From a virus: a DNA stretch of 64,000 nt. The stretch covers positions 1-64,000 of IMG/VR virus record IMGVR_UViG_3300009177_000032. One strand, 5' to 3'. Every line of letters starts with the position of its first letter. The stretch's first letter is position 1. Both the position numbers and the translations under genes were made by a program. Of the stretch, positions 16,732 to 61,700 are shown piece after piece. The notes beneath the pieces are model-generated. The model saw only the letters and a list, made by a program, of their open reading frames with translations. It was not told the DNA's origin and did not search any database.

Positions 16732-17173
16732 GGTGTTTATTCAGTTTGGCCCCTTGCAGTTGCTGACGATGCAGTTCGATATGGCGGGCGCGAGTTACCA
16801 ACTCGAAATTTGATAAGCTGTCATGCAGAGCGTTACCGTCGGCATGGTGAACAATCCAGCCTTTTGGGATAGGTCCGTTTGCCTGCTCCCATAGCCAGGT
16901 TGCGTATGGCTGCCAGTTGAATTGAGCGACTGGACCGTTGGCAACTTTTATCCATCGCCGAAGTATGCCATTCTTGTCCCGCCTAAACGTGGTGTCGCCT
17001 ACGGCTAATGTTCCCTTTCGCCTGTGCCCTCTTTGAAATGAGGTTTTGTTTGCCCTCGACCACCCACGTGTTCCTTTGTTCCAAGGCTCTTGACCGGGCG
17101 CGAATGACGTGCTGTTTGGACCCGCTCCCGCGGCAAATTTGTTTCCCTTGAGGTAGGAGTTATCTCTGTTCAT
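16664..17173 (-). CDS. HNH endonuclease
   Basis: PWNKG repeat; GPIPKGWIVHHADGNALHDSLSNFELVTRARH. Confidence 0.88.
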   Translation of the reverse strand: MNRDNSYLKGNKFAAGAGPNSTSFAPGQEPWNKGTRGWSRANKTSFQRGHRRKGTLAVGDTTFRRDKNGILRRWIKVANGPVAQFNWQPYATWLWEQANGPIPKGWIVHHADGNALHDSLSNFELVTRARHIELHRQQLQGAKLNKHHEIKGNSNEVIRAAGAREARPD

Positions 17174-18486
17174 CGAGCCAAAATGGTTAGAGCGCCCTGC
17201 GCATCGTTTGCATCCGACGCCTTAATGTAATCTTCGCTGATATCGATGGACGTGCATCCTCGTCCGAGCTCAACGCATGCCCTGGCTGTCACCATTGTGC
17301 CGCCAAAGGGATCCAGCACCAAGCAAGGCTTTGACTCCCGGTCGCATGTGCATCCAGGGTCCCACCTGAGCGTTTTTCTCTCGCGCATGCCCGCCAGGAT
17401 CCGCCGCTTCACGTCGCTCGCGTTCTGGACCTTGTTGCCGTCGTAATCCTTCTTTGCCTGGCCCTCGTAATTGCCGAGCATGTCGCCGCCGCATTGGCGT
17501 TGATGCTCAATGTCGGGCTCTCCCAATTCGACGATCCGCCGGCGAGGAGCTCCGCACTCCATACAGCAACCTCCCTCGGAGGTGCACGCCTCGATTAGCG
17601 GCCGTACTATCGATTTTGGGTAGCTCGCGAAATGGTTGATCGTAGTCCCCTTCGGGTTGACTACCAGGGCCAGCGGGTCGCCGTCCTCATCGCCGAGGAG
17701 CCCCTCCCACGACTGCATGAACAAATCCGTATTACGGAAATTACGGCGCGTGACCAGATAATCGCTTGTTGCATCCTGGAAGGAAGGGTTTTGCTTTACC
17801 CCGATTTGAGCCAGGGCGGCCTTGGGATTGGTCCGGCGCCTCCGTCGGTTATTGTCGTGAGTCTGTCGAGTCGGGAAAACTGCCGCGCGTGGGTGAGTGT
17901 TGTCTGACGCCCGGACCGTAACCGCGTCCCGGTCGTAGTAGTAGTATCGGCCTTTTGTGAACATGAAAAAGTACTCGAGCGCGTTGACGGGTCGGTCCTT
18001 AACGCTCTCCGGCATGCAATTTCGTTTGATCCATGGGCACATCGAGCGGAGGATCCACCCGCCTTGCTGCAAATCCATGGCAACCCTCTGCGGCAGTAGG
18101 AGCATTTCCTTAGGCTTCAGTCCAAGGGGGTCGGCTGGCCGGAACACGCCATTTGACGGGTGATCCTCGTCTCGGCCAAGGCGGGATCCCTCGGGATCAT
18201 ACATGCGTCTGGTGCCGGCGGTGTACCGGTCGCCCAGGTTGATCCACAAAACGCCATCGTCACGGAGTACCCGCCACACCTCGGTAAAGACTTCCCGAAT
18301 GTGGAGAATATAAAGCTCGAGGGTTTTCTCAGTTCCGATTTCCTTGCTCTTGTCGGGGTGCCCCGCCGGCAGGTATGAGCGCAAACCCCAGTAGGGCGGG
18401 CTCGTGACGCAAAGGTGAAAGGACTTTTCGGGGAGCGTCTTTAGGACGGCCCTGGCATCGCCCTGAATTTTTTGAGGGATGATCAC
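17170..18486 (-). CDS. DNA N4-cytosine/N6-adenine methyltransferase (beta class)
   Basis: TSPPYW motif IV, VLRDDGVLWINLGD, HFASYP, VLDPFGG motif I near C-terminus. Confidence 0.88.
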   Translation of the reverse strand: MIIPQKIQGDARAVLKTLPEKSFHLCVTSPPYWGLRSYLPAGHPDKSKEIGTEKTLELYILHIREVFTEVWRVLRDDGVLWINLGDRYTAGTRRMYDPEGSRLGRDEDHPSNGVFRPADPLGLKPKEMLLLPQRVAMDLQQGGWILRSMCPWIKRNCMPESVKDRPVNALEYFFMFTKGRYYYYDRDAVTVRASDNTHPRAAVFPTRQTHDNNRRRRRTNPKAALAQIGVKQNPSFQDATSDYLVTRRNFRNTDLFMQSWEGLLGDEDGDPLALVVNPKGTTINHFASYPKSIVRPLIEACTSEGGCCMECGAPRRRIVELGEPDIEHQRQCGGDMLGNYEGQAKKDYDGNKVQNASDVKRRILAGMRERKTLRWDPGCTCDRESKPCLVLDPFGGTMVTARACVELGRGCTSIDISEDYIKASDANDAQGALTILAR

Positions 18487-22318: not shown

Positions 22319-23761
22319 TTAGTCGTTGTGCCGGCGGTAGTCAAGATGTTCCTGTTCGGGGACGTCCTCATCGCTGATTTTTGCCGTGGCTTCAAACCGC
22401 GTTACCGACTTCCAGAACGTCAGCCCGATTTTCCCCGTCGGTCCGTTCCTCTGCTTGGCCACATCCAGCGCAATGGGCACCACATTGCCGTCCACTTGAT
22501 CCTCGCTCCCCTCTTTGCGCGATAATAGCATTACCGTGTCAGCGTCCTGCTCAAGACTGCCGCTTTCGCGGAGGTCTGCGAGCTGGGGCATCCCCTTACG
22601 GCCATCGATGCCACGCTTGAGTTGCGAAAGCGCGATCACGGGGATGCGCAGCTCCTTACAAAGTGCCTTTAGACCGGCGGAGATTTCCGAGACTTCGCGC
22701 TCCCGGTTATCAGGTCGCTTCCCGTTGATTGAGGCGCTCAGGAGCTGAATGTAATCCACAACAAGCAGCTTAATATCGTGCTGGATGACCATTCTCCGCG
22801 CTCGAGCTCGCAACTCCATAATGCTGAGCCCCGAGACGTCGTCTACAAACAGATGAGAAGCTGCGATCTTGCCGGCAGCTCCGGTGAGCTTGGGAAAATC
22901 GTTCTGCGCCATGAAGCCATCGCGGATGTTCCTTAGGCTGACTCGCGCTCGAGAGCAAAGCATCCTCAACACCAGCGAATCTACCGTCATTTCGAGCGAA
23001 AAGACTCCCACCGGAAGCTGCTGATCGATCGTAACGTGCTCGACAATGTTCATCGCGAGCGAGGTCTTTCCCATGCTCGGGCGAGCGGCCAAAATGTAGT
23101 ACTCCCCTGGCACAAGCCCGCCGGTTAATTTGTCCAAGTCCTGAAAACCGGTCCCCAGTCCGATTAAGGCTCCGGCGCGCGTCAGAAACTCCTCAATCCT
23201 GTCCATTGATTCATGCACAACCTGCCGGATCGGCCTCAGTTGCTGTGCTGCCCCGATCTGGCGGACGTCCATGATATCGCGCTCGACCAAATCCAACGCA
23301 TTGGACGTGTCCGGTTCGTCGTAGAGGCGCGATACCGCCTCGGTACAAGCCACGATCATTTTGCGCCGACGGTAGTGCTCGAGCATCACATCGAGAAACG
23401 TTTCCAATGCGTCCGCAGTTGGCGCCAGATCGGGAAGCTGCCCTATGTAACTCATCCCGCCGACCTGCTCGAGGAGCTGTTTGTCTTTCAGGTAATTCGC
23501 CAGGGTAACCACGTAGAGCTTTACCCCCGCGTTGACGAGTTCCTCCATAGCCATCCAGATCGACCGGTGCCGCATATCGAAGAAAGCCTCAGTCGCGTTC
23601 CTTCCCAATTTCTCGATCACCAGACTCACGCCCTCCGCCGATCTGGTTTCATCAATGAGAATGCAACCGAGGGCTGATTGCTCAGCCTCAATGCTGTGCG
23701 GGGGCAATCGATCGACGGCGGGGGCTTGCCGGCGCTGTCGCCTAAGATCCGGTTCACTCAT
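22319..23761 (-). CDS. dnaB: Replicative DNA helicase
   Basis: PPHSIEAEQS, AARPSMGKT, VVDYIQL, LSQL, DLRESGSLEQDAD, KQRNGPTG. Confidence 0.97.
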   Translation of the reverse strand: MSEPDLRRQRRQAPAVDRLPPHSIEAEQSALGCILIDETRSAEGVSLVIEKLGRNATEAFFDMRHRSIWMAMEELVNAGVKLYVVTLANYLKDKQLLEQVGGMSYIGQLPDLAPTADALETFLDVMLEHYRRRKMIVACTEAVSRLYDEPDTSNALDLVERDIMDVRQIGAAQQLRPIRQVVHESMDRIEEFLTRAGALIGLGTGFQDLDKLTGGLVPGEYYILAARPSMGKTSLAMNIVEHVTIDQQLPVGVFSLEMTVDSLVLRMLCSRARVSLRNIRDGFMAQNDFPKLTGAAGKIAASHLFVDDVSGLSIMELRARARRMVIQHDIKLLVVDYIQLLSASINGKRPDNREREVSEISAGLKALCKELRIPVIALSQLKRGIDGRKGMPQLADLRESGSLEQDADTVMLLSRKEGSEDQVDGNVVPIALDVAKQRNGPTGKIGLTFWKSVTRFEATAKISDEDVPEQEHLDYRRHND

Positions 23762-25175
23762 TCAATGAAATGCGCCCGGAAAAGAAGCTCAATAAAAGCT
23801 GTCGCGCCCTGGACCGCCACAACTGCGTTGCCGGTGCACCTGAGCTGATCGATTCTGCCCTCGTCCAAAACCATGGCATGCCCATCAGCCAACACGCGAA
23901 AGCCGGGTTTAACCGCGGGCGAGAGCCCTTCGGAGCCTTGGAGGATTTCGGGCCATCGGGGGTCTTTTGGCCCTGGGGCGAAAATAAGAGAACAGCTTCC
24001 GTCAATGGTCGGGAGTTGCCGTAATCTTTTAGCGTCTCGCCGCTCCGGTAATCCCTGCTTTGGCACGTCGGCCAATTCTCCGTCTCCAGGCTGAGGGTCG
24101 TTTTGTTGCGCGCTGCCTTCCTTCCGCGGCCGCCCGCCTGCTCGCCGTCCATCGTGGTGACCGTCGTCCAGTTGGCTACCTGTGCCGGCAGCGCTGCCCC
24201 CGTGTTGCTCCGATCCTCCTTCGCAAAGTCCGGACCGCTCGCCCCGTCCCATCCCTTCGGGGTCGCCCATTGGCTGGCTTGGTCCTGCAGCGTGACCTGC
24301 ATTTTGTTCCCCGTTTCGTGTTGAGCTCTCTCGACCGCCTCCTGGCTCCGCGTCCTGCTCCCGCCTGTCGGGGCATCCGGGGTCGCCCACTTCTCCGCCT
24401 GGCCGGTCAAGCTGTCCCGCTCCATTCCCTCTATCCCGTGATCCCGAGTGAATGCGCCCGCCTCGTGCGATCGAGGGGTTTGCCAATTCGCCGCCTCCTC
24501 CTGCAGTTGGCGTCCAGCCTTGCCGCATCCATGCTGATACCTGTTGTTTCCACCAGAGTCCATCCGGGCCGTTGCGGTAGGCCAACACAAAGACTCTCTC
24601 TCGCTCGTGTGACGCTTTAACGTCGTCCGCAAAGATAAAGACAGGCTCGACGATCTCGTAATCCAGTCGCGATAGTTCTCCTCCAAAAGCCATGAATGGA
24701 TAATTGATTTTTCCTGTTCGCTTGTCCCTAAGCCCTCTAACCCAAGCTGGCACGTTTTCGAGGAGCACCAGGGCGGGGCAACACTCCTCGATGAGTCGAA
24801 GGCAATGCCTAGCAGGTCCTTCTCCGTCACCAAATGCTCGAGCATCTCGATTTCCCTCTCTGTTTCCGGCGCAACTGAAGGGGGTACAAGGGAGCGAAGC
24901 TGTAAAAATGTGAACCAGCCCGCGAATCTGAAGAAGTGAGAGGCCGGCAATATCGCCGATCCAAATAGGGTGTTCCTCCACGCTCTGTTCTTCCATCCGC
25001 GCCAAGTACACGGCGTTGGCGTAGCTTTCCCATTCCGCGCTACATAAGGTTTGTAATCCGGGAAAAACGAGCTTAACGGCTTCATCGAGCATCCCGATGC
25101 CGCGGCATATCGAGACGCAAGTCGGCGCGGGACTAACCACATTGACCCCCCTCGCGGAAACTTTTCCAGTCGCAA
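23754..25175 (-). CDS. Alternative-frame beta chain of the C5-MTase (start uncertain)
   Basis: Six W[PQAT]T repeats and RLNPAFACWLMGMP (motif IX-like). Confidence 0.65.
   Translation of the reverse strand: MRLEKFPRGGSMWLVPRRLASRYAAASGCSMKPLSSFFPDYKPYVARNGKATPTPCTWRGWKNRAWRNTLFGSAILPASHFFRFAGWFTFLQLRSLVPPSVAPETEREIEMLEHLVTEKDLLGIAFDSSRSVAPPWCSSKTCQLGLEGLGTSEQEKSIIHSWLLEENYRDWITRSSSLSLSLRTTLKRHTSERESLCWPTATARMDSGGNNRYQHGCGKAGRQLQEEAANWQTPRSHEAGAFTRDHGIEGMERDSLTGQAEKWATPDAPTGGSRTRSQEAVERAQHETGNKMQVTLQDQASQWATPKGWDGASGPDFAKEDRSNTGAALPAQVANWTTVTTMDGEQAGGRGRKAARNKTTLSLETENWPTCQSRDYRSGETLKDYGNSRPLTEAVLLFSPQGQKTPDGPKSSKAPKGSRPRLNPAFACWLMGMPWFWTRAESISSGAPATQLWRSRARQLLLSFFSGRISLNE
23758..25140 (-). 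CDS. DNA C5-cytosine methyltransferase, alpha chain
   Basis: Motif I CRGIG, IV LPCTPFS, VI LENV, VIII HERERVF, X RCTGNAVV; no motif IX in this frame. Confidence 0.88.
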   Translation of the reverse strand: MVSPAPTCVSICRGIGMLDEAVKLVFPGLQTLCSAEWESYANAVYLARMEEQSVEEHPIWIGDIAGLSLLQIRGLVHIFTASLPCTPFSCAGNREGNRDARAFGDGEGPARHCLRLIEECCPALVLLENVPAWVRGLRDKRTGKINYPFMAFGGELSRLDYEIVEPVFIFADDVKASHERERVFVLAYRNGPDGLWWKQQVSAWMRQGWTPTAGGGGELANPSIARGGRIHSGSRDRGNGAGQLDRPGGEVGDPGCPDRREQDAEPGGGRESSTRNGEQNAGHAAGPSQPMGDPEGMGRGERSGLCEGGSEQHGGSAAGTGSQLDDGHHDGRRAGGRPRKEGSAQQNDPQPGDGELADVPKQGLPERRDAKRLRQLPTIDGSCSLIFAPGPKDPRWPEILQGSEGLSPAVKPGFRVLADGHAMVLDEGRIDQLRCTGNAVVAVQGATAFIELLFRAHFIE

Positions 25176-25720
25176 ACCACCAGCATGCCGCTCTCGTTCA
25201 TGCGCGAAACATTGGCCGGCCCGAGCATCGTCTCGAGCGACTCCTGATTACTGTTGCTGATAAGGATCGTTTCCTTCATCAGCCCATAGCGCTTGTTAAT
25301 TAAATGGTCGAGCAGCCGGTCCTCCCACTGCGTCTCGGCGCGCTTCTCATACTCATCGATGATGAGCAGTATCGGCTTGGCGAAATTCGACAACACCATT
25401 TCCTCCGTGTCGGGGCTGTCCCTGTGGTAGCTCGCCTTGATCAGGAGAAAGAAGTCCATCGCTGTAACGTATCGGCACGGCCAACGGTGATTTTTGATAA
25501 CGCTGTAAATCAGGTTTGCCCCGATCTGAGTTTTACCCACCCCGCTCTTTCCGATCAGCGCAATCAGGCTCCCGCGCCCGAGCCGGTCGTAGATATCCTG
25601 CCCTGCCTGCAGCCAGGGTCCGTCACCCTGGGCCGTCTTGAACCGCTCGCGGTACCTGAGCGGCAGTCTCGATTCTATTAATAGTTCCGTTTGTTTGGTG
25701 TCCATTGTCGCTTGCTCCAT
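25133..25720 (-). CDS. DnaC/IstB-like helicase loader ATPase
   Basis: GKSGVGKT, LLIIDE, INKRY..TILISN, SRM. Confidence 0.88.
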   Translation of the reverse strand: MEQATMDTKQTELLIESRLPLRYRERFKTAQGDGPWLQAGQDIYDRLGRGSLIALIGKSGVGKTQIGANLIYSVIKNHRWPCRYVTAMDFFLLIKASYHRDSPDTEEMVLSNFAKPILLIIDEYEKRAETQWEDRLLDHLINKRYGLMKETILISNSNQESLETMLGPANVSRMNESGMLVVCDWKSFREGGQCG

Positions 25721-26399
25721 AGGTTGCTACTGCTCTGACTGTCAACGGCGATTGTGTGCTGCGGGTAAGCGCCTCCTGGCGCCTTGACTCCGCTGCGCCA
25801 TTCCCGGCGCCGTTTTGTCTCTGACTCGGGAAAAATTTACCCCTCTCCCACGCCCTCACTGTCGCCCGCCAATCGAGTATCGGTTGCCCTCCATTTTTCC
25901 AGCCGTTCCCCTCGCACTTCCAATAAAACCAATCCGCGTCGGACTGCGGCAGCTTCAGACTTATACACAGATCCCTTATTTGTGTGAGGTCCCCGCGGTC
26001 TTTGCGCGGCTTTGGTGGAGGCTCGGGCTTGGGAGGGTCAGGTATAAGCGTCCCTTGGGTTTCCCCCTTACCCCCTTCCTTTTCAGTCTTAACTACAGGA
26101 TCAGGTACTTCCTCACCCGTTTCCGGTGGAGGGGGGTCTGTGATTGGGAGCTGCCACACCCTGCATCCTCCGCCCACGGTCCCAACCTGCTTTATGAACT
26201 TCGAAGCCTCGAGCCGGCGCAACCCGATCCCCACCGTTTTTACATCTAGCTCAGCCGCTACTGCGATCGTGGTTTGAGACGGCCAGGCTTGGTGTTTAGC
26301 GTCCGTGTAGCTGGCCAGTATCGCCAGAATCAGCTTGTCGCTGCCTCTCCCAACTCTCTGGCTCAGCGCCCAAAGAGTCGCATCCGCCCGGTCGCTCAT
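25623..26399 (-). CDS. Replication initiator protein with N-terminal winged HTH
   Basis: KLILAILA..AWPSQTTIA..LRRLE; C-terminal NGWKNG..ILDWRATVRAWE; upstream of loader and helicase. Confidence 0.8.
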   Translation of the reverse strand: MSDRADATLWALSQRVGRGSDKLILAILASYTDAKHQAWPSQTTIAVAAELDVKTVGIGLRRLEASKFIKQVGTVGGGCRVWQLPITDPPPPETGEEVPDPVVKTEKEGGKGETQGTLIPDPPKPEPPPKPRKDRGDLTQIRDLCISLKLPQSDADWFYWKCEGNGWKNGGQPILDWRATVRAWERGKFFPSQRQNGAGNGAAESRRQEALTRSTQSPLTVRAVATYGASDNGHQTNGTINRIETAAQVPRAVQDGPG

Positions 26400-27231: not shown

Positions 27232-28227
27232 TTATCGGATGAGCCCGTATTTGGTTAGTGTCCACTCCGTAGGAGAGGTTGTGCCAAAGCCGTTGACGAC
27301 CCCCGGGCCGGCATCGTCCCAACTTGGCCAAGCGTTTTCCTTTAGGCATTGGCAATAGCGCTTGAGCGCCATCACATACTTGATCCGACCGATCGCGACG
27401 AAGTTATCGCCTACGGTCCGGCGGGCCTGCTGGAAAGGAAACTCATTTTCCTGAATGACGTGATGAAAAACCCATCTCTCTTGCGGCCGGGATGCGGTGT
27501 AGATATCAATGCTCATTGCCGCCTGGGCGTCGTAGTTCTGCCGGTCGATCACCTTCTGCCACTCATCCGGGCTCGCGTTGCGGGCCGTCTTGAAGTCGGC
27601 CAGGCTGTTTGAAAACTGGCCTTTTATCGACGGGACAATGTCGATCAGGCACTTGAGCGGGACCGCTATCTTTGTCTCGCGGTCGACGTAGGTCGCAATG
27701 CACATGACCTGATATTGCGCATCGGCTGTGAGCGCGCCGATCCAGGCGTCCTCCTTGAGGATTTTAAGGGCCTGGCGCGCGTCCTCGTAATCCGCCCGCC
27801 TGACAATCTGTTTGCCGGCTTTCCTGGCCTCCTTCGTCCACTCCTTCGCCTCTTTGCACAGCGGTTGCCAGGGGACTAAGTCGCCGTCTCGGGCCTCGCC
27901 CTCTTTCACGATCGACATTGTCTTTGTCGCCGTGACCGTCTCAGGCTGAACCGCAAAGTTTCCGTCAAACCGGCCCGAGGGGCACGTAAAGAGAGCGTCC
28001 ATCAGCGTGCCCCATTCGGTCGCGTCGGTATCTTTGAACACGTAGCCGCGGTACCACCGTTGCGGATTTGAGTCGAACAGCATGAGCTCGCTCCGGCTCA
28101 TCACAAAGTTTGGGTCGCCCCGCTTTATGGCGGGGTCCTGGCGGAGGTAAATCTCGGTCGGGACGTCGGTCCCAATGATTTTACCGTCCTCGAGTTTTAC
28201 CGGATCAAAAAAGTCTGAGGCATTCAT
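27232..28227 (-). CDS. PD-(D/E)XK exonuclease, RecE/Exo VIII-like
   Basis: KCLIDIV...LADFKTA...YDAQAAM. Confidence 0.8.
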   Translation of the reverse strand: MNASDFFDPVKLEDGKIIGTDVPTEIYLRQDPAIKRGDPNFVMSRSELMLFDSNPQRWYRGYVFKDTDATEWGTLMDALFTCPSGRFDGNFAVQPETVTATKTMSIVKEGEARDGDLVPWQPLCKEAKEWTKEARKAGKQIVRRADYEDARQALKILKEDAWIGALTADAQYQVMCIATYVDRETKIAVPLKCLIDIVPSIKGQFSNSLADFKTARNASPDEWQKVIDRQNYDAQAAMSIDIYTASRPQERWVFHHVIQENEFPFQQARRTVGDNFVAIGRIKYVMALKRYCQCLKENAWPSWDDAGPGVVNGFGTTSPTEWTLTKYGLIR

Positions 28228-49147: not shown

Positions 49148-49758
49148 ACAAAACCGCTGAATTCGTGAACATCGCCCGCAAGCTGGATATCGACCCGCTA
49201 GTGATTTATGACCTCGGGTCATTCGATGCCGCTCAGGCGGTGGAGCTCGCCATTGCTTTCCCCAAAGCTCGAGTCGTTGCGCTCGAGGCCGACCCCTACA
49301 ACATCCCGAAGTGCCTGGTCAATGCGAAGGGCCATCGAAATATCACTATCGTCAATGGTGCCCTGGCTCCGCTCGGCACTCGTCCGCTCATCCACTTCAA
49401 CCGCTCAGTCGGCACAAACGACCAATGCGGGAGCCTCTTGGTGCCGACGGACCTCAAGGATATGCCGGTCGAGTGTATTGTGGTGCCGGCCGTGACAGCC
49501 GCGGACCTCGACAGCTTCTTCGGCTTGCCAACTTTGCTCTGGATGGACGTCCAAGGATCCGAATGGAACTATTTCCTGGGTTTTCCCTTCCGTCCGCGGC
49601 TTGTGTGGTTAGAGGTCGCCTATGACCCCTACTACCACGACCAGCCGCATAAGGATGAGCTCGTCCGCAAGATGGCCGATATTGGTTACAAGCCAATCTT
49701 TGAGGAGGTCGGGGTCCCCGGTAGATGGGGAGACGTCTGTTTTTGGCTTGGGTACTAA
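49144..49758 (+). CDS. FkbM family methyltransferase
   Basis: IYDLGS, ALEADP, LLWMDVQGSE, WLEV. Confidence 0.88.
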   Translation: MNKTAEFVNIARKLDIDPLVIYDLGSFDAAQAVELAIAFPKARVVALEADPYNIPKCLVNAKGHRNITIVNGALAPLGTRPLIHFNRSVGTNDQCGSLLVPTDLKDMPVECIVVPAVTAADLDSFFGLPTLLWMDVQGSEWNYFLGFPFRPRLVWLEVAYDPYYHDQPHKDELVRKMADIGYKPIFEEVGVPGRWGDVCFWLGY

Positions 49759-52700
49759 TGCGCTCGCGGCCTGAGTGACCTAATCCCGCCTGCACCAGTC
49801 CTCCGGAGAGCTCCGGCCCTTCCACCTGGGCGCCGAATTGACGGACCTCGTGGACCGCGGAGGCTCCTCGCCGGCAATCGCACCCCGCGCCTGAGATTGG
49901 GAAGCCGAGCAGCTCCACGTAACGGAGCTCCCCCGCCTGCAGCTATGCTCGGCACCTGCGCATTTTGCGGGGTGACATACCTGCTCGCGCTCCCGGTCGG
50001 CACCTGGCCATTTCCCGGCGCCGTTTTGGATAGCGCTTCCATTGCCGAGGTGTCGACCCCGACGCTCTGCAAAGCCGTCTGGTTCGCCTGATTGAAGGCT
50101 GTGCGGATATCGCTGAGGGTTGCGTCCGGTCCGAGGGCCTCGAGCGACTGCTTGAAATTCTGGCCTCGAGCGACTGAGTAGTCAGCAAGCTCCGTCTTGT
50201 TCATCGGGCGGTACTCGCCATCGATTGGATAGCCTTTGGCTGAATCAACCGCGGGCGGCCGATATCCTGAATTGAGCAGCGCCGCATAAGGTGCGAGCGC
50301 CTTAGCTTGTTCGGTGTCCACTATGCCAGGGTAGATCCCCATCACCCCGCCGCCGGCTGTCAGCGTTTGGATCCAGCGCTGGACCGCGTCCGGTGTCCCG
50401 ACAGGGTCGCCGAGGATGTTGACGGCCCGCGCCTGGCTCGTCGGCAGCGGGACGAGGAAGTCCCAAAAGCCCGAGAGCTTGGAGTCCATATTCACACCAG
50501 CTCCGCGCGCAAACTCTTGGTAAGCTGGCAACCCGAGGATGTTGGGCGAGACGTAGGCCGCAGCCATCTTCGAGACGTTGGGGACCCCATATTCAGTCCC
50601 GCTCTGCACCACGCCAGAGAATGCTTTGCCGGAGATAAGCGTCCCCCAAAGGCTTTGAGCTGCGATCGAGGCAATGTCGAGCGCGCCGATGGGCGGGATT
50701 TTACCGGGAGCAATCCCCTTCTTTTCGGCTTCAGCATTCAGCTTCTCTTGCGCCTTCTCGCGCGCCATGACCGCCTCGAGAATTGCCCCAGCTGTCGCCG
50801 CATACGGCGCAAAGGCCGAGGCGAGCCCGACCGTCAAAGACATTGGGATGAACTCGTGATCGTTGAGGACGAGCTCAATCGTCCCCGATCGGTGACCTTG
50901 CGCCTCCCAAAGTTCACGCTCTGCTTTGTTCTTCGGCCCCCTCAGGAATACCCGGATGAGGCCCGCGAACACCATGCCCATGATGAGCGCGCCGAGGATG
51001 CTGCCCACAATGGCCTGCACCCGTCTTTGATACCGGTCCTCCTCACTCCAGAACCATGGGGACTCCTCGTCTCCGCCCATGCCAGGAACCTTGATTGCTC
51101 CCTGGGCGTAGAGCGGCGTGAAAAAGAGCGAGTAATTGATGCCGGTGCCGACTGCGTTGGCAAAGCGTGCGAAGCTGAAAGGCAAGCCGATGTTCGCCGC
51201 AAACCCTGACGCCATCTTGCCGGCGCCAGCGACAAGCCCGCCAAGCCCGTGGGTCACGCGCTCTTGCCAGGCGATCGTACGACGCAGCTTCTCGTTTTTC
51301 GCACGGAAGTCATCCGCCGGAAGCCCAAGCGCCCGGATATCCTCGTAGATATTTGAGCGGACCAAGTTCCAAGCAGCCTCGTTGACCTCGTTGGGGCCGG
51401 CATTCTCGCCCAACACCTGGCGGGCCAGCGCCATGGCCGCATCCCGCTTCTCTTTGAGGTTGCCAAGTATCCGGTCTTTGTTGGCCGCAATCTCGGCTTT
51501 GTCCATGCCGCGCTCCCGCAACTCGCCTTCAATCTGATTGGCGAGCTCCTGAAACTCCGCCGGAACACCCTGGAAATTATCGACGGCTTGAACGAACCGG
51601 AGGCTAAACCGGGCGAGCCCCAGGAGGCGCAACACCGCGGCTTTGCCGTGCTGACCCTTTTCCGAAGCTGCCTTTGCCTCGGCTTCCATTCGTTCGAACA
51701 TCAACACGCCCGTAACCAAACGGTCCACATTTCGACTCTGGCCACGACCAGCCAAGGCCGAGCGGGCGGACGCTATAGCCGGCCTAAGTGCTTTGAGCGC
51801 TCGTCCGTACCCGTCGGCCAAAGCAACATTGAGGTCGCGCCACGCCGACTCTCTGCTCCCCTCGGCTTGCCGCATCCAGGCAACACCGGCCGCCCTGGTA
51901 GGGATGTGCCAAAAGAGTTGGCTGATGATGTGTGTCGGGAGGCGGAGGGCAAACCCGACCTTGAGCAGCATATTGGCTACCTCAAACTCGTTGATGGCGT
52001 CGGCAATGTTCCGCCGGCTGTTCCACGCATTGCGCCAGGATTGCACGCTGAATCCGGGGAACACGATCGGGCGAGTCATCTTCGCCCAAAGCGCGCTTAT
52101 ATCCTTCGAGAGAGTGCCACGTCTCTCCTCGGTGAGAGCGTCTCGAGCAGCCTGGGCCCGCCGAAGCGCTTCCGCGTCGTTTCCGGCCTGAGCCCGTTCC
52201 TCGGGGGTGAGTTCCTGCAGCTTCTGGATCTGAGCCGCCAAGTCCTTGAACCGCTTAACCTGAGCCTCCGTGGGAGGTGTCCATCCTTTTGCGGCCGCAA
52301 TTTGGCGCAAGACGTCGGTCGAGTCGAAAATGCCGGCATTAGCAGCCGCCACAATCTTATGCCAGAGCGGTTTCCCCGGGCGCGCAAACTTTCTTTCCTT
52401 GGGTGTAAGCCCGTCTGTCGCACGCTTAATTGCCTGGACCCGTGCCTTTTCGAACAGGTTTTGATAGGCCGCTTCGAACAAGGCCGCAGCCCGGTCAGCC
52501 ACTTCGGCGGGCACCCCATACCGGTTGATGAGGATTTGGCTGAAGTTTTGGGCAATCTGAGCCTGCCGATAGAAGGGGGTGTCTAGAGCCTGGCGGACCA
52601 GATCCGAGGCTTTCGGCATCACCCTTTGGATAATGCTCTTGTTCGCCACGGTCTGGACGTACTCGACAAGGTCAAGCCGCGGGTCGCGAAAGAGGCCAGC

Positions 52701-55700
52701 ATTGATTTTAGCGCCTAGCCTCGCTTCAGGCGTAAGCGTAGCGCCACGTTCTTGAGGCGGTTGGAACAAAGGGGCGCGAACTCGCTCCCGAGCTCTCTCA
52801 AGCTGTCCTGCTAATTGTGTCTCGATAATGGACAGGACCCTAGCCCTTGTGCCTTCGTCGGCTCTGGACAGGTCCATGTTGGCCTCGAGGTTGGCCCAAT
52901 AGGCGTCCAAGACCCTGGTAACCTCGGCCTCCGGCTCTTGCGCGAGCTTCTCGAGGTCGATACGGGTATCCGCAGGGCGCTGCACCGGTGCCTTGAACCG
53001 GGTTTTGCTGAAATCCTCGCGGATGAGGTCCTGAGCCGTCTTGAGCGTAACCGGGTCATATCCGACGAGGTTGTCTCGGATATCCTTCCAATGCCGATAC
53101 TCCGGCTGGTCGAGCCCGCGCTCGATTTGGTCCCTGGTTGGCTCCTCTCCGGCCTGGAAATTGGCGAGCAGCTCCTGCCGTTCTTCGTCGCTTTGCGCAT
53201 CCAACAGCGCTTGCTTACGGCCGGCATTGAATTCCGCAGCCTCGACCGCAGCCCGCATGATCCCGTTTATCTTGGCCGAGGTCGCGGGCGTCATGAGGTG
53301 GATCAGCCGGTCGACCGCCGTCAGCTTCGTAGGCTTTGGCGTCGGTTTCGGTTCAATCCCCTGCCTTGCAGCCTGCTCGAGGAAGCTATTTACCGCCTCC
53401 TCGGTCCTGGCATCGCTCTGCAGCTTGGCCAGCGTTTTCTTGAACTTCGGCTTGAGCAACCGCTGCACCCATCGATAAGCCGCGTTGCCCTCATCGTGGA
53501 TCCGCAAGGCAATCGTTTTGTCGACCAGGTCTTTGAGCGCGGGCTTTTCCTCGAGCGCCTTCGAGATCTCCTCGTCGGTGAAATAATCCCGCATGTGATC
53601 GGTGATGCGCGCCAGGATCTTGCGGATAAAGTCCCCGCCGAAAGCGTCCGAATAGGTCCGCGCCAGGATCGTATTGACGTTGCGCGCCACGTATTGGGCC
53701 GTTTTCCTGAGCCCCGCCAGCACTCCGAGCATTAAACCACGGTGGGATGCCTCCCCCTGAGTGACCGCGTAGAGCTCGGCCTTGAGTGCCGGACTAAACG
53801 CCGTGACGTCATCCCCGACCATGTTGTTGCGGATTGAGTTGATGAGGAAACCCAATGCCCCTTTTGCCATGGTTTGCCCTGGCTGCTGTTGGGTCGATAT
53901 ATCGTCCTGCACCAGCTTGAGCAGCCGGCGCCCCTCAATCTCAGATTCGAAGTCGGGGTCCACCAGCTCGTAATACCCGTTGTCCTCGGAGGGGATGACC
54001 TGCAGTCCGGCCCTCGTAAAGGTCTGCTCTGCGTGCCTCTTACCGGCCTCGAGCATTTCCGGGCTCATCTGCTCGCGCCCAAGGATCGTGTCGATTACCC
54101 CCATGCGCTGTGTGGTGACCTTCTCGTTGTCGAGCTCGAGGTCGGCCATGTTGAGCCCCTCATCCTCGGGTAGCTCGGTTTTCTCCGGTCCAGGCTCGGC
54201 TTGCCAGCGCTCGAGCTCGGCTCCGGCCTCCGGAGTGTTCCGGTAACGCCCGTTCAAAAGGTCGCTGATAACCCGTTTGATACCCGGTTTGTACCCGATA
54301 ACCCGCCGGAGCGCTTCGAGCAGCCCATTGAGCCATTCCCGGATCCTGGCAAGCAGCCGCTGAAAGAGGGACTCCTCCTTGTGGTAGAACGGATTTGACC
54401 GCGCGTACTCGTTCCCTGCCACGCCGGCAAGGTACTCCTGCGGACTGGACAGATAATACCAGCGATCGAGGAATGCCTTAAGCTCGGGGTGCGCGCCGAC
54501 GATATCGGCCATCGCCCGGAGGAAATCCTCGGAGTGAATGCCATCACGCGCCATCATCCTGCCGAGCAATTCTTGCACCTCCGGCGGAAGCGCCGTTGCG
54601 TCTTTCACCGTGCCTAGCGCCTGCTGAATCTCCTCCTGGCGATATTGCTCGACCTCGGCCCTAACCTCAGGAGGCAGTAGCTCCCAAAGGAAGTGGAATA
54701 TTTCATGTGGAAATGTCCCCGGCCGCGCGCCCTTCGAGAGTTCGATGAGCTGGTTTGCGATGTTTGCCCGCCCTGAAACGTCCCCAGGCAGACGGTCCCG
54801 CACAGAAACCATGAGCTTGGACCAATCCAAATTGCGCATCACCGGCTCGGAAAGGAGTGCCAGGGCAACCCGTCGGGCCTCATCCGATATCTTAAGCTCC
54901 GGATCTTCGAACATCCGCCGGATGCCTTCGATGCCGACGCCACTTGCCGCCTCTCCCGTCGCCGTTTCCCCTGGGGCCTCGATGCTCGAGCGGCTGCGCC
55001 CGGAGCTCCCCCGCGTGTTGGAGTCTGCCACTAACGGGATCAGTGGCGTAGCTTCGCCGATGGCCTTGAAATTCTGGCCGGTGATCTTAACGATGCGATC
55101 GATCGCCGCCGGCATATCCTCCTCGGACACATTGGCAACCATGCGATTGCCGCGCTTGTCAAAGTCCCCGGTGATATCGCGGAGCGGCCCGTCGAGGTAA
55201 ATCGTCCCTCCCGTCGACTTTGCCGCTGGTGTCGAGATCTGGAACGTCCGATCGCCCCAGCTCGGTCTTACAATCCGCACAACCTGGCCGCTCTCAATCG
55301 GTATCCTGTCCGCCCCCGCCTTAGCGTGAGTGACAAGGAAGTGAGTTGCCGCAGTCCCGTTGACGAGCTCGAGCCTCGGATCGCTCACCAGTTGAGCCGG
55401 TCCCCAGTTACGGGGCATCTGCAGCCCGGTGACAACCTGTCCCTCCGAGGACTTGAACCGGACCATTTTGCCACGGCCGCCCGTAGACACATATCCCTGG
55501 ATCGGATTGCCCACGACAAAGAACCGCTCATACCGCGCATTCTTGTCCCCGGGCCCGAGGTCCGATGGCACGGAGTTCGACGGCCCAAGCTCCCATCCCT
55601 CTTGCCCGCGGAACTGAGCGCCGTTGATATAGGCAACCCCGCCCGGAGCGTGGAGCAGGAATTTGAACCGGAAAGCGCCAGGACTAAAGCGATTGGTCGG

Positions 55701-58700
55701 AAATCGAACCTCGGTGAGCATGCCCTGGAATTCATCCCCGGTCGCGTTGTTTTGCAGCTTCACGACTCTGCCGGCATCCTCCATTACCAAGTCGGCCATC
55801 GCCTTTGCCGCGCTCCACCGCCGGCGCGCAGCCTCTACCTGACCGGCCCTAACATTGATGCTGATCCCTTCGGATTCGTGCGCGGTGACCTCCTTCTCGC
55901 TCAACTCAGCCTTTCGGTCCTCGTCGGCTTGCCACGCAGCGCGCTCTTGATTGATGCGCGCCTCCATTTCGTCGAGCTTTGCATCCCCGTTAGCTTTGAC
56001 TTCGTCCCAGTCTTGCAGAAGTTTCTCGCGCCCGCCCGTCTTGCGCTGGAATTCATTGACCATTTCGTCGCCCGTGGGGACGTGCCTCAGGTCCCGGATG
56101 TTCCAGATCTGCAAGCGAGTGCTCGCCGTGAATATGTTGCTCTCGTCGGTGCCGGCCTTGAGCTGCTGATCGTCTTGGAGCCGACCGTCCCAGTCGTCAT
56201 GCACCACAATCTCGAGGTCATACTCACCAGTGGCTTTGAGCTGCTCAATACGCTGCCGGTAAGCAGGGAGGATGTAGTCGTAAGCCTGCTTCTGGCTCGA
56301 GTCCGGCAAAAGCGCCATGCGGCCAGTGAACCGGCGCGCCAGGTCCCGATCGTAATCGAGCGTCCCGTCGTCCTTCTGACTCACGAACAGCCCAAGCATG
56401 CTCTGGATCTCCGGGGTCTGGTCGAGGTACTCCGCCACGATGGCATCCCCGTATTTGTTGAAAATATCCTCAGCATCGATCTTGATCGCGCTGTCGCTGT
56501 CCGCCGTGGTGTTGGCATTCAGTGACTTCATTTTGCGCGCCGTCATCGCCGCGGGCCTCAACTCGGCTTGGATTGGCAGGACCAAATGAGTGTAGCGCGC
56601 GCCGTAGGGGACCTCGCCTTGTGGCGTTTTGTAACGTCCGAGCAGCACCATGCCCGTGCGACGGATTCGGCCAAGGGTCTGCATGAACACATTGATATCA
56701 AGCGCAGGCTGAGCAATGACCATGTGCCGCGGGCGTTTATCCGTGACTTCCTTTTTCTCGGAAGCGTGCGCGCTTAAGCCCGTGCTGCCGCTCGCGTTGA
56801 GGAGCATCCCATCATAGGTCCCGTTGTTGAACCCGTTGACGACCGTGTTTTTGTTCGCCTTCTTGAAATGTTTGTAGGTCGCCTCGCCCGTTTCGAAATT
56901 CGTGTATTCGAGCCCGCTCTCCCGCCCGGTCAACTCCGCTATCTTCACCCCCTCGGCCTTTAGCCGCTGGATGATGTAATCGATCGGGCTGATTGGGAAC
57001 TTGCTCTCAATCGCGTCTGCAGCGCGCTGGATTGACCGGTAGAGATCCCCGAGCCCGTATTCGTCGGGGTTGATAATGATGATGTTGGTTTGGCCCCCAG
57101 GCAGCTTTTCCTTTGCCCGAAGCGTCCGGCTGAGCGCGTGCCTGGTCAGCTCGTTCCAGCGGAGCGTAATGCTTTGCACTGGCTGGATATTGTGATCGGT
57201 AACGAACTGGTCGAGGAAACTCTCCATCGTGTTCATCAAGGCGATCACCGGCTTTTCGCCGGCCTTGATGGCTGCAACACACTCGGCAACTACCTCCTCC
57301 GCCTTGGCCGCGAGCAGGAGCTGACTAACCTGATTGTGGACGATCGCGGCAAAGTCCGTCATGTCGGTCGCGTTTTGCGACATTGCCGTCGACTCGTTCC
57401 CCTCGCCCTCTGCAAGAACCGCGTCCCGTATGCGCTCGCTGAAATCGACGATCTGCGAGAGAACGTCCGTAACTGCGTCGACTTCCTCGGTGAGCTTGGC
57501 CAGGTCCTTGACCTCGACCATTTTCATATCGTAGCGCACACCGGTAAAGTCCCGCTCCCGCCTGACATACTGTCCCGCCTTGGCCAGCGCTTCCGATACC
57601 GCCTGCTGCAGCGCAACCCCGCCCTTCTTCATGGCTTCGACGATCTGCCCAAAGTTTTGCGCGGCCTTGCTCAGCCCGGTCCGGAAGTACACCGGCATGT
57701 TTTCGGGACGTTTCGCGTACGTTGCGCTCAGGTAGGCCACGCCTCCCATGCCAGCCTTTGCCCCGTTGGCATTGAGTATGCCCGGAACGTGGATCGTCAT
57801 GGTCAGCCCCGTAACAGGGTTCTTGCGTTTGACGCCTGGACCGCCGCTAAAGAAAGCGGCCTGCATCGATGACTCGGCATCGCCCGCGGCCTCGTGCGCC
57901 TCGTCCATCACGATCACGACCGGGTTTTGCCGCGAGAGCTGCTCGAGGAATTCCTGGCGCGCATTGCGCACATTGACTTGCGAGTAGGTCGAGAAAATGG
58001 CGTTGAACTTATCGGGGTCCCATCCGTTTTGGAGAATATCGTTGATGATGCGCCGTTGGATCTCCGAGGAAGGAGCCGACACAAGCCGATTGCCGGCAGC
58101 GTCCACGATCGAGGCTTTCGCCGGGTCCCCGAAGATGAGCGGCTTAACGATGGTATGGATATCCTTCAGGTCCCCCCACATATCGGAAAACAGCTTCGGG
58201 TCTTTGGTGAAGAACACCGGGATCATTCCATTGAGCAAAGCGTAACGGATAAAGGCCGCAGCCTGGCGCCCTTTGCCTATGCCAGTCTCGTCGCCGATCA
58301 CCAATGCCCCGCCGGTTTCGAACTGGTAAATACCAAGGGCAACACCGTCGATTTGGTCCGCCGCGAGGATCGTCCGTATCTCCATGACGTCCATGTGTAG
58401 CCGGTCCGCTACATATTCATCGATCGACCCGTGAGCCTTTTTGATGGCATCGAGCGCGTCGAAAACACCTTGCGCGATGTTCTTCGGGATGAGCGTGCCG
58501 AACGGGGAGCCATCTGAGCGAGGCTCGTAAGGGACCTGATACTCGGTCGCGTTTACCTTCGGGGGTTGCTTCGGACTGGTCGTCTCTTTCGGCGGGAGCT
58601 TTTCTTCAGCCTGCTCCTGCTGGACGTCCTGCATGAACCGCTTGAGGTACGGCTTGATGACGTCGCCGACCTTCTGGATCCAATACTTCGCAAAATCGAG

Positions 58701-61700
58701 TAGCGACTTGCCCGCTTTTTTGAACTGCTCCCACGCCTCTTGAAAATGTTTCTTCGCCTCCGCGTAGGTCTTTTCGTTGAAGGGCGGGACACCGAAAACA
58801 CCGCCGAGGTTGCTGCCGCCGAACAGATCGGTAAGTCCCTGGACCGCCTTATCGATACCAGTGATCCCCTGTTTGGCGAGGTCACTGATTATGTCCGCTG
58901 CCGCTTTGGTCGTCGCGCCCGGAGCTCCACCGGCCGGGGGCGGGGTGCCTTCGAGCGTTTCACTAACTGGCGCTTTCGTTGCACCCTTGGTGGATTTCGT
59001 TCCACTTTTGCCCTGTTTCTTTCCAGCCGGCCGGGGCTGCTTAGGCTTCGTGGGCTTCTTGACCTGTTCGCTGGCCGTGTCGAGAAGATTGTCGAGATCC
59101 GCGTCGGTGAGATCGGTAATGTCCGAGCCGGCAGGACGGTCTAAAGCACCCTTGCCAGAAAGCTCTCCAGACTTTCCTCCGCCAGGAGCTGCGCCGCCTC
59201 CGGTTGGGGCATTAGCTGGCGCGCCTTTACCGCCTCCTTTAGCCCCGCCTTCCACTGGTGGAGCGGTCCCCCCTCCGCCGCCGGGTTGTTTAGCAGGTAA
59301 GCCGGCGCCTTTGGATCCTCCAGTAGTTTCCCCGGAAGGAAGTTGAGCGCCTCCTGCGGGAGGTCGTTGTCCAGTTGGCGATTGGCCTGCTCCAGCTCCT
59401 TCTCCGACGCCTCCCTCCTCAGTCGTTGTAACATCCCCACTTGGAGCGCCAGGAGCTCCTCCGCCGACCGCGGGGGGCCTTGAGCCAGGAGGTAATAGGT
59501 TAGGTACTCCGGCTGTTCCGCCGGTGCCCAAGCTATCTCTGTAGGCTGTAACTGCATCTCTGGTTTTCTGCGCTTCGTCCCAAAGCTGCTCCCACGTGTC
59601 GTAACGCGCAACACTTTTTGGGCCCAGGTCGCCGGACTGTCCGATCGGGATGGGCGTTGTTTTGCGCCCCGCAATCACGATGATCTGAACCGGCCACTTG
59701 GCTCCCTGACGTGCGTAGAGGTCGCCGCTAAGCTCGAAATTGGCAACGACATTATAATGCGCGTAGAGCCAATTCTCGAAAACCCAAAGCGCTCCCCTGT
59801 TCTCTCGCCCCGCGTTGGGCTCCATGCCGGCACCGAGGATAATACCCGCCGTCCCTGTATCCTCCATCGAGGTAAGCCCGCGAGCAGCGATGATGTGCTC
59901 AATCTTCTTGAGCCCGTAGCCGTCGACCGCCGTCGGTTGCTTGATCGTACCAAAGGGCGGGTTGAGGTGCACGATCTCGAACTTTCGCGGAGAGCTGTAG
60001 TTGAGCGCGTTCTCTCCCGTTACCGTGCCAATGCCGAGCTTCCTCAGGTTCTCACGCCGCTCCGCGTTGAGCTCGTTGCCCTCACTGCGCGCAAAGTTTC
60101 CGCCGATAAAGAGCATGCCGTTGCCGGCCGTATCGTCGAACAGCGCCGTTTGCGGAGTGACGCCAGTCATGTGCCCCAGGGCAAACGCCATCGGGGCAGG
60201 AGTCGAGTAAGCCTGATTTTCGATGCTCGTGCTCGTCCTGGCCGACAAGTTTGGCTGCTCGTTGTAAGCCTCAACGAGCTGATGGAACTTAAACAATGCC
60301 CCACGGTCTGGCCGGATTGCCAGAGCCTGAGAGGATCGAACGATCTGCAGCTCGACCTGTTCCTGCATCTGCTTCACCGATATCCCGCGCTGAGCTGCGA
60401 GCTTCTTCAAATTGACGGCCATTTGCTGCGAGCTCACGTTCGAGTTGAGGATCCCAAGGATCTCATGATCGTCGGTCTGCGGAGCGGTTTCCTCGCCGGC
60501 GATTTTGAAATCAGGTGCCCCGCCCTGCAGATCCTTCAATCGGGCGTAGATCGTAATCCCGCGGCCCTTGATATACGCATCCCCCGGAGCCGGATAATTG
60601 ACCCCTCCTTCAAACCACGTACCGGTAACGTGCGCGCCGACGTGCGGACTAAAATTGGCAGCCATTTCGCGCAACCGGTCTTGTAGCAGACTGATCACCT
60701 TTTCCCGCGGGGCGTCCGCTGGCGGGCCCAGGAGTCGCTCGCGCATCTCGTCGGACATTGGCGCGCCAGGAGGCGGGACAGCTCCGGGCTTCTGTTTCTT
60801 CTTCGCGTCGGCAATAAGCGTGTTGAGCGTTTTCAGCGTCTCCCGGATGGGAGGCCATTCCGCCATTTCCGACCGCGTGACCCCTGGCTTTTGGTAGGTC
60901 TGATAAGCCTGCTTCACTCCGGCCACGTTGAGCTTGAGCTCGTCCGCTTGGCGCAAGAGACTGCTAATGACCGAGAGGTCCATCCGCTCATCGCTACTGA
61001 GCTTGACTGGCTGTTTAGGGTGCCACTCGCTGTAGGGCGGGACCTCGCCGTCAATGATCGTGTCCCCTTCGTGCAATGTACCGTGACTCCATTTTCCGCT
61101 AGGAGTGAGATAAGCGACGACCGGTTTATTACCTGGCAGTGGCTGGCCTGGGGACTGCTCCCAATACCCTCCGAAAAGGCCAGGAACGATCTGCCCGTCT
61201 GCGGTCTGGATCGCAATCGGTGTGTTGTTGGCCGGGATTGCCGGCAGCTTCTCCCAGTCGATGGACTTTAGCGGAGTGATCGGGGCTTGTGGCGGAGGTA
61301 CGGGAGGAGCCCCCGATGGTAACTGAGGATTGACCGCGGGCGGGACGCCTGGCGCACCAGTCCCCCCCGTCGGAGTGACCGCACCTGTTTCGATTTGTGG
61401 CGCTTGGAGGAGACGCGCTCCGGCAGGTCCTTGAACTCCACCGGGGCCTCCTTCTGGAACCGGCGGAACACCTTCGGTTTGTTGAGCCGGAGTTTCACCC
61501 ATTGGGCCTTGCTGACGATTGGCATAGTTATCTCCTTGTGTTAGCAAAGCCTTTGGCTGCTCCGATCCGTAAAACGCAACCAGCGTTTCCGGGGATAAGC
61601 CAAGGTAGCTCTGCCAGAATTTGCTATCTATTGTCGGTCTGAGAGTCGTGATCCGTGTCGTCGGGTTGCGCGCCACACCGAATGCCTCTTTGGCCGGAAC

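Follow-up and report, generated by a model that had tools for sequence, protein, structure and literature searches.

The window analysed here is a 64,000-nucleotide (nt) stretch of viral DNA (IMG/VR record IMGVR_UViG_3300009177_000032, positions 1 to 64,000), and our subject is a pair of overlapping open reading frames (ORFs), frames A and B, at a DNA (cytosine-5) methyltransferase (C5-methyltransferase) locus on its minus strand. Both frames are stop-free throughout, frame A being frame B shifted by +1, and they are co-extensive rather than arranged as the gene within a gene described in an initial annotation of this DNA: their ATG and GTG start codons overlap, 2 nt apart, and their stop codons lie 4 nt apart (Table 1). 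Both frames do end beside the dnaB start, as that annotation had said; the TGA of frame B (23760-23758) overlaps the dnaB ATG (23761-23759) as ATGA, and the TGA of frame A lies at 23756-23754. The stop it gave for frame A, at 23754, stands, whereas its start at 25175 does not, as the 473-residue extent listed by the ORF finder (23754-25175, minus strand) begins at a TTG that is merely the program's first start and the conserved start codon is the ATG at 25142. A replication module of phage type surrounds the methyltransferase gene. Comparison of the two frames with each other and with homologous loci suggests that these co-extensive, same-strand genes probably give the alpha and beta chains of one C5-methyltransferase.

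Table 1. Features of the dual-frame methyltransferase locus and of the replication module around it, in window coordinates.
Feature	Position	Strand	Remarks
Frame B ORF (putative alpha chain)	23758..25140	minus	460 aa + TGA; catalytic large domain, low-complexity linker, motif X end
Frame A ORF (putative beta chain)	23754..25142	minus	462 aa + TGA, counted from the conserved ATG
Dual-start hexamer ATGTGG	25137..25142	minus	ATG (25142-25140) opens frame A, GTG (25140-25138) opens frame B
Shine-Dalgarno-like GAGGGGGG	25146..25153	minus	3 nt before the ATG; within the 3' end of the DnaC-like coding sequence
Alpha catalytic domain	24556..25140	minus	Motifs I, IV, VI, VIII; same DNA encodes the beta N-terminal part
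Motif I, CRGIGM	25090-25107	minus	Frame B
Motif IV, LPCTPFS	24874-24894	minus	Frame B
Motif VI, ENV	24751-24759	minus	Frame B
Motif VIII, RERVF	24589-24603	minus	Frame B
Alpha linker, residues 196-384	23989..24555	minus	Gly/Arg-rich, predicted disordered, lengths vary among homologues
Six W-x-T modules	24003..24584	minus	Frame A: WPTA, WQTP, WATP, WATP, WTTV, WPTC
Motif IX, RLNPAFACWLMGMP	23874..23915	minus	Frame A, beta residues 410-423; overlaps the conserved PGFRVLADGHA of alpha
Motif X core, GNAVV	23818..23832	minus	Frame B; G437 and N438 invariant
DnaB	22319-23761		Replication module
DnaC-like loader	25133-25720	minus	TAG at 25135-25133
Replication initiator	25623-26399		Replication module
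Exonuclease VIII-like gene	27232-28227		Replication module

Frame B has the characters of the large domain of a C5-methyltransferase, namely motif I, the Pro-Cys of motif IV, the ENV of motif VI and motif VIII. Pfam DNA_methylase (PF00145) matches residues 8-191 only (61.4 bits against a cut-off of 22; profile positions 3-164 of 324), while phrog_29583 matches the frame from end to end. Homologues of the frame B protein numbered 112, and P84, C85, E128, N129, V130, R180 and R182 are conserved in the alpha family. The fold of the AlphaFold2 (AF2) model of alpha matches the large domain of M.HaeIII and M.HhaI, and the alpha profile aligns to residues 12-182 of M.HhaI. No target-recognition domain is found in alpha, whose residues 196-384 (22% Gly, 11% Arg) are of low complexity, unconserved and predicted to be disordered, and no conserved column occurs in the middle of frame B among 78 homologues. 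The predicted local distance difference test (pLDDT) score of the model is 79-98 over residues 1-210, below 50 over residues 212-380 (35-45 in the linker) and up to 95 over residues 440-460. Conservation resumes after the linker with FAPGP, PGFRVLADG and DQLRCTGNAVV, the last of these containing motif X, which lies within a helical C-terminal segment of the model. The initial annotation had placed motifs I, IV, VI, VIII and X in one frame, with a Gly/Arg-rich stretch where the recognition domain and motif IX would be expected, and the Pfam match and composition agree with it. Motifs IX and X are not found together in the polypeptide that carries motifs I-VIII, the pattern of motif X being in frame B and that of motif IX in frame A only. 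Pfam searches with the C-terminal pieces of alpha and beta returned no match.

From its N-terminus, the beta chain of frame A consists of a weakly constrained part, the six W-x-T modules, motif IX and, last, a C-terminal helix. With the ATG at 25142 as residue 1, the modules lie at residues 187, 220, 252, 292, 325 and 357, a spacing of 32-40 residues; L..(Q/E)A.. precedes each of them, and their W and P are nearly invariant in the beta family. Downstream, the pattern LNP.F..WLMG.P is nearly invariant in frame A, with L411, N412 and F415 of motif IX invariant. The six tandem units and the motif IX-type sequence that had been read in the second frame are therefore both present, the former at the six positions given above and the latter, RLNPAFACWLMGMP, at residues 410-423, and the near-invariance of the pattern, together with its alignment to the motif IX region of single-chain relatives (see below), supports its assignment as a putative motif IX. 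The N-terminal part has conserved motifs of its own, in the order MW.IP at the start, SGK.T.RP.SW.GWK.RAW and PPWCSSKTS, followed by the first WPT. Frame A is matched by phrog_1008, gene callers have called frame-A-only ORFs at other loci, and the beta profile retrieves 39,325 cluster representatives (E <= 0.001). A LAGLIDADG endonuclease domain occurs in a single one of 59 beta-family proteins, suggesting insertion of a homing element in that copy.

The layout of the start codons suggests how two frames could be read from one stretch of DNA. The minus strand around the starts reads GAGGGGGG TCA ATGTGG, in which the ATG of frame A and the GTG of frame B share one G, and GAGGGGGG is presumably a ribosome-binding site common to both. 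Given that the DnaC-like gene ends at 25133, three reading frames overlap at the starts (within 10 nt, window 25133-25153), and the beta ATG and the alpha GTG lie inside the last codons of that gene. The hexamer [A/G]TGTGG is found in the same register at all 12 viral loci and at 19 of 25 full-length homologue loci. At three loci (L002, L007 and L014) frame B is closed immediately before the GTG, leaving that codon as its only possible start. In the beta proteins, W2 and P5 are nearly invariant (59 family members), and most of the top matches to the beta profile begin at profile position 2. Other sub-families space their starts 4 nt apart, as in GTGAATG of phage phi1026b and ATGAATG of L018, and a Paenibacillus prophage (L046) has an internal beta ATG behind an AGAGAGG of its own. 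The conserved hexamer, W2 and P5, the positions at which profile matches begin and these alternative start layouts suggest that the second frame is initiated independently.

Homologous DNA was taken from viral contigs and bacterial genomes, giving 25 full-length loci with recorded sources that include Verrucomicrobia, Chromobacterium, Hyphomicrobiales, Acidobacteria and Oxalobacteraceae. In 23 of these loci, at frame B identities of 27-69%, neither frame is interrupted over the whole gene, and in the same 23 motif IX lies in the +1 frame, motif X lies in the frame of the catalytic motifs, and many stops close the third frame. In the two exceptions the frames are broken in differing ways, L017 having its motifs spread over three frames and L041 being a 1.9-kb match; decay or insertion is possible in these. 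When the window sequence was shuffled synonymously, preserving protein and codon usage, frame A remained open over its 188 N-terminal codons in 0.1% of shuffles (4.3 stops expected, 0 observed), as did frame B over its 222 middle codons (5.3 expected, 0 observed), and each of the 11 other loci put through this test has zero stops in both alternative stretches. The alternative-frame open run covers 100% of the length here, compared with 4-48% in the 23 other frames of at least 300 codons in the window. The initial annotation had named a lack of conservation of the beta frame as a reason to abandon its proposal; with the frame open in 23 of 25 loci and a shuffling P of about 0.001, the beta frame is conserved.

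When the window is compared with L001, its nearest relative, substitutions fall mostly at the third codon position of frame B over nt 0-540 and mostly at the third codon position of frame A over nt 540-1170, and are mixed thereafter, in the 3' part where the FAPGP...PGFRVL.DG block of alpha and motif IX of beta are written on the same DNA. Amino-acid selection shifts from frame B to frame A and is then mixed near the 3' end. The order of the motifs, from frame B to frame A and back (B-A-B), would on its own resemble two frameshift mutations, as expected of a pseudogene or an assembly error in which a single-chain gene had been broken by two indels. We give this explanation practically no weight, as 23 of the 25 independent homologue loci show this layout again, at identities as low as 27%, the frames are fully open, the start codons are conserved and the indels between the window and L001 are all multiples of three. 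The open second frame is neither chance nor damage; both frames are held open by selection. As candidate causes, sequencing error and pseudogene formation were ruled out by conservation across the homologue loci.

Single-chain relatives allow the frame A segment to be placed within an ordinary enzyme. In a gene from a Pelosinus metagenome-assembled genome (L048:2489-3745), motifs I-VIII, three W-P-T-P modules, LNPDWVECLMGFPIGWT (motif IX pattern LNP..VE.LMGFP.GWT) and LGNAV all share a single frame, with the +1 frame closed (38 codons). Its product aligns with window frame B over residues 5-166 (E = 1e-8) and with frame A over residues 228-297 (E = 0.001) and again, in the motif IX region, over residues 320-354 (E = 0.011). 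The single-chain protein of L022 behaves likewise, with residues 52-159 aligning with frame B (E = 7e-12), residues 222-251 (motif IX) with frame A (E = 8e-5) and residues 260-284 (motif X) with frame B (E = 4e-4). Given that both proteins align in the order B-A-B, the modules and motif IX of frame A would correspond to the variable region and motif IX found in ordinary C5-methyltransferases. At L022 (2707-3723), the catalytic frame holds motifs IX and X in a single chain of ~291 residues, and a 192-codon +1 ORF keeps beta-type N-terminal modules and an LPTPT module, without motif IX. In another alpha-frame protein, P0021, RRLNPAFDCWLMGMP is followed directly by MVVDASRQDQLRCVGNGVV, and motifs IX and X thus appear to lie in one frame.

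A single polypeptide of canonical order (motifs I-VIII, recognition modules, IX, X) might instead be produced here, alone or beside unshifted products, if ribosomes shifted frame twice in a programmed manner, by +1 once motif VIII has been read and by -1 once motif IX has been read. The composite product would have the B-A-B order of the L022 and L048 chains, P0021 reads motifs IX and X in one frame, and in the window motif IX of frame A lies only 5 nt from the conserved frame B stretch before motif X. We nevertheless consider this unlikely. Of 23 loci searched from motif IX to motif X for a -1 slippery heptamer (X XXY YYZ, frame A), none had one, +1 sites not being systematically scanned, and beyond motif VIII frame B meets neither a stop nor an obvious pause. 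Double frameshifting would also leave unexplained the openness of frame A over ~190 codons upstream of the first shift, the openness of frame B over ~220 codons between the shifts and the conservation of a frame A start codon. Both frames span the whole gene, unlike frameshift genes such as dnaX, prfB and the phage tail chaperone G/GT, in which the zero frame ends shortly beyond the shift site and the other frame has no need to be open before it. A minor frameshift product alongside two chains is possible.

In the two-chain arrangement that we prefer, a ribosome at the one Shine-Dalgarno site would start either at the ATG of frame A or at the GTG of frame B 2 nt downstream. Frame B would yield alpha, with the whole large domain, comprising the S-adenosylmethionine-binding and catalytic motifs I-VIII, and with motif X tethered to that domain by a long disordered linker whose sequence would be free to vary unless a stop arises. 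Frame A would yield beta, with a loosely constrained N-terminal leader, the six-module array at the position of target recognition and motif IX, the modules and motif IX corresponding to the small domain. Alpha and beta would then associate on DNA to form an active enzyme that protects the phage genome from restriction. From the comparisons above we infer that both frames are translated, that the chains associate and that beta is required. The initial annotation had likewise proposed a two-chain enzyme resembling M.EcoHK31I, and, with the motifs split and both frames conserved, this remains the best reading of the sequence and one that we regard as more likely than not.

Several points weigh against this assignment. 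The case for two chains is comparative throughout, and the collinearity with single-chain relatives would equally follow from a double frameshift. Members of the beta family lack a Pfam family match in 58 of 59 cases, and a search of sequences in the PDB with the beta profile gave only a chance match (E = 0.6) and hence no relative of solved structure; the assignments of motifs IX and X accordingly draw on short conserved patterns and weak BLAST alignments. The AF2 model of beta alone, built from 39 sequences, is poor, with a mean pLDDT of 52.8. Its best-predicted parts are a helix at residues 142-181, the motif IX region and the C-terminal helix, and a structure search with it matched a single long helix only, with Z below 5. 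Two tests of amino-acid conservation in the N-terminal part of beta, beyond what the constraint on alpha imposes, gave a signal no greater than that of the alpha linker. The excess of same codons was 0.475 against 0.361 expected in the N-terminal region and 0.471 against 0.385 in the control region, and alternative-frame identity was 0.295 against 0.215 in shuffled sequences and 0.229 against 0.172, respectively. Because the two regions behave alike, our claim for this part is one of selection for openness and for local motifs, and the first ~185 residues of beta may be a translated leader only.

Beta might also be translated without being obligatory, with alpha alone methylating DNA with little or no specificity, or with beta acting separately or as a modulator. 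Alpha holds every catalytic and cofactor motif and folds confidently in prediction, databases annotate alpha alone as a methyltransferase, and beta has no detectable similarity to solved methyltransferases. Set against this, alpha has no folded region at the position of the recognition domain and motif IX, the single-chain relative L048 carries W-x-T-P modules and motif IX within the enzyme, the alpha and beta frames are linked in 23 of 25 homologue loci, and alpha of M.EcoHK31I requires its beta (PMC2836561). A dispensable beta is, in our view, improbable.

Homologues carry between 2 and 7 W-x-T modules, which repeat every 28-40 residues and share one strong consensus, and the array previously called expandable is so in an evolutionary sense. 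This variation is neutral as to whether a module has a target of its own, and the multispecificity that the initial annotation had raised as a possibility is conjectural. The distance from the last module to motif IX is ~50-64 residues in most loci (full range 27-108), and no tandem repeat was found at the DNA level under the modules. Being encoded by the same DNA, the alpha linker varies in length with the number of modules. In alpha, the DNA under the array would have to supply no more than an uninterrupted linker, so that the array could acquire, drop or exchange modules at no cost to the catalytic chain. It is tempting to see in the modules a modular read-out array whose number and order set which, or how many, DNA sites are methylated, an idea that we hold as speculative and rather unlikely; if true, the array would be an evolvable specificity cassette enabled by dual coding.

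Public annotation of this family is inconsistent. In Burkholderia phage phi1026b (L026, 1868-3988), frame A runs unstopped into a ParB-like gene, giving a 706-residue beta-ParB run-on ORF; frame B is annotated there as a methyltransferase, and related Burkholderia phages name the 706-residue ORF a chromosome partitioning protein. In Acidovorax phage Alfacinha1 (L027, 1934-3067), the gp46 'cytosine-specific methyltransferase' is the beta-frame protein, which begins MWLYIPS and carries W-x-T-P modules and LNPAFGCWLMGWP without the catalytic motifs. If our reading is correct, annotation would be systematically half-blind, recording either alpha as a methyltransferase without a recognition domain or beta as a hypothetical protein, a methyltransferase or a ParB fusion, and predicting the methylation motifs and anti-restriction capacity of phages would require the second frame. 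Should both chains be made and needed, the locus would comprise 1.4 kb of fully dual-coded DNA conserved over tens of thousands of sequence clusters, and few same-strand overlaps in viruses of prokaryotes would be as long or as widely distributed. It would also be a natural example of a C5-methyltransferase cleanly divided between a large-domain and a small-domain chain, with overlapping start codons as a simple means of fixing the ratio of alpha to beta.

Two other genes of the window may be mentioned. One is another DNA methyltransferase in the same phage-like region, belonging to the N6/N4 type (PF01555, phrog_67; 17170-18486, minus strand). A giant ORF of 4323 residues (49758-62726, minus strand) has a Strawberry-notch-type helicase core (AAA_34 and Helicase_C_4) at residues 1473-2173, outside which no Pfam match was found at E <= 1e-5.

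Among known systems, the closest parallel is M.EcoHK31I of E. coli HK31 (YGGCCR), a natural alpha/beta C5-methyltransferase that requires both chains and whose beta is encoded in another frame of the alpha gene and carries motif IX (PMC2836561). The likeness, which we draw from the description of that enzyme rather than from its sequence, is that here too a second chain in another frame of the first chain's gene would supply motif IX. In M.EcoHK31I, however, target recognition resides in a domain of alpha, and the ORF for beta is small and nested (PMC2836561), whereas at the present locus the frames are co-extensive, the start codons overlap, beta is as long as alpha, the recognition-like modules are in beta and the variable region of alpha is a disordered linker.

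Totally overlapping C5-methyltransferase ORFs are also recorded in phages of the S. thermophilus 5093 group, in S. pneumoniae phage MM1 and in Tn5252, where they were described as a striking feature of the annotation, without functional or evolutionary analysis (PMC5601072). As at our locus, the same phage C5-methyltransferase DNA there specifies two products, each in a frame of its own; those ORFs belong to a different, shorter sub-family and are set beside ours by description. For the present family itself, our literature search found only papers related to M.EcoHK31I, the remark on streptococcal phages and an unrelated paper on an out-of-frame HNH insertion.

The multispecific C5-methyltransferases of the Bacillus phages SPR, phi3T and rho11s are single chains with tandem units between motifs VIII and IX, and genetics has shown each unit to be a recognition domain for a target of its own. 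Our family resembles them in having several tandem units between motifs VIII and IX, and differs in that its units are shorter, share one strong consensus and lie in a second chain. With L048, M.HhaI and M.HaeIII it has in common the order of the motifs and the fold of the large domain, although those enzymes use one reading frame and their +1 frame is closed. In its alternative-frame beta chain, the locus resembles what is known from M.EcoHK31I; what sets it apart from that enzyme is that the two frames are co-extensive and that the putative recognition part resides in beta.

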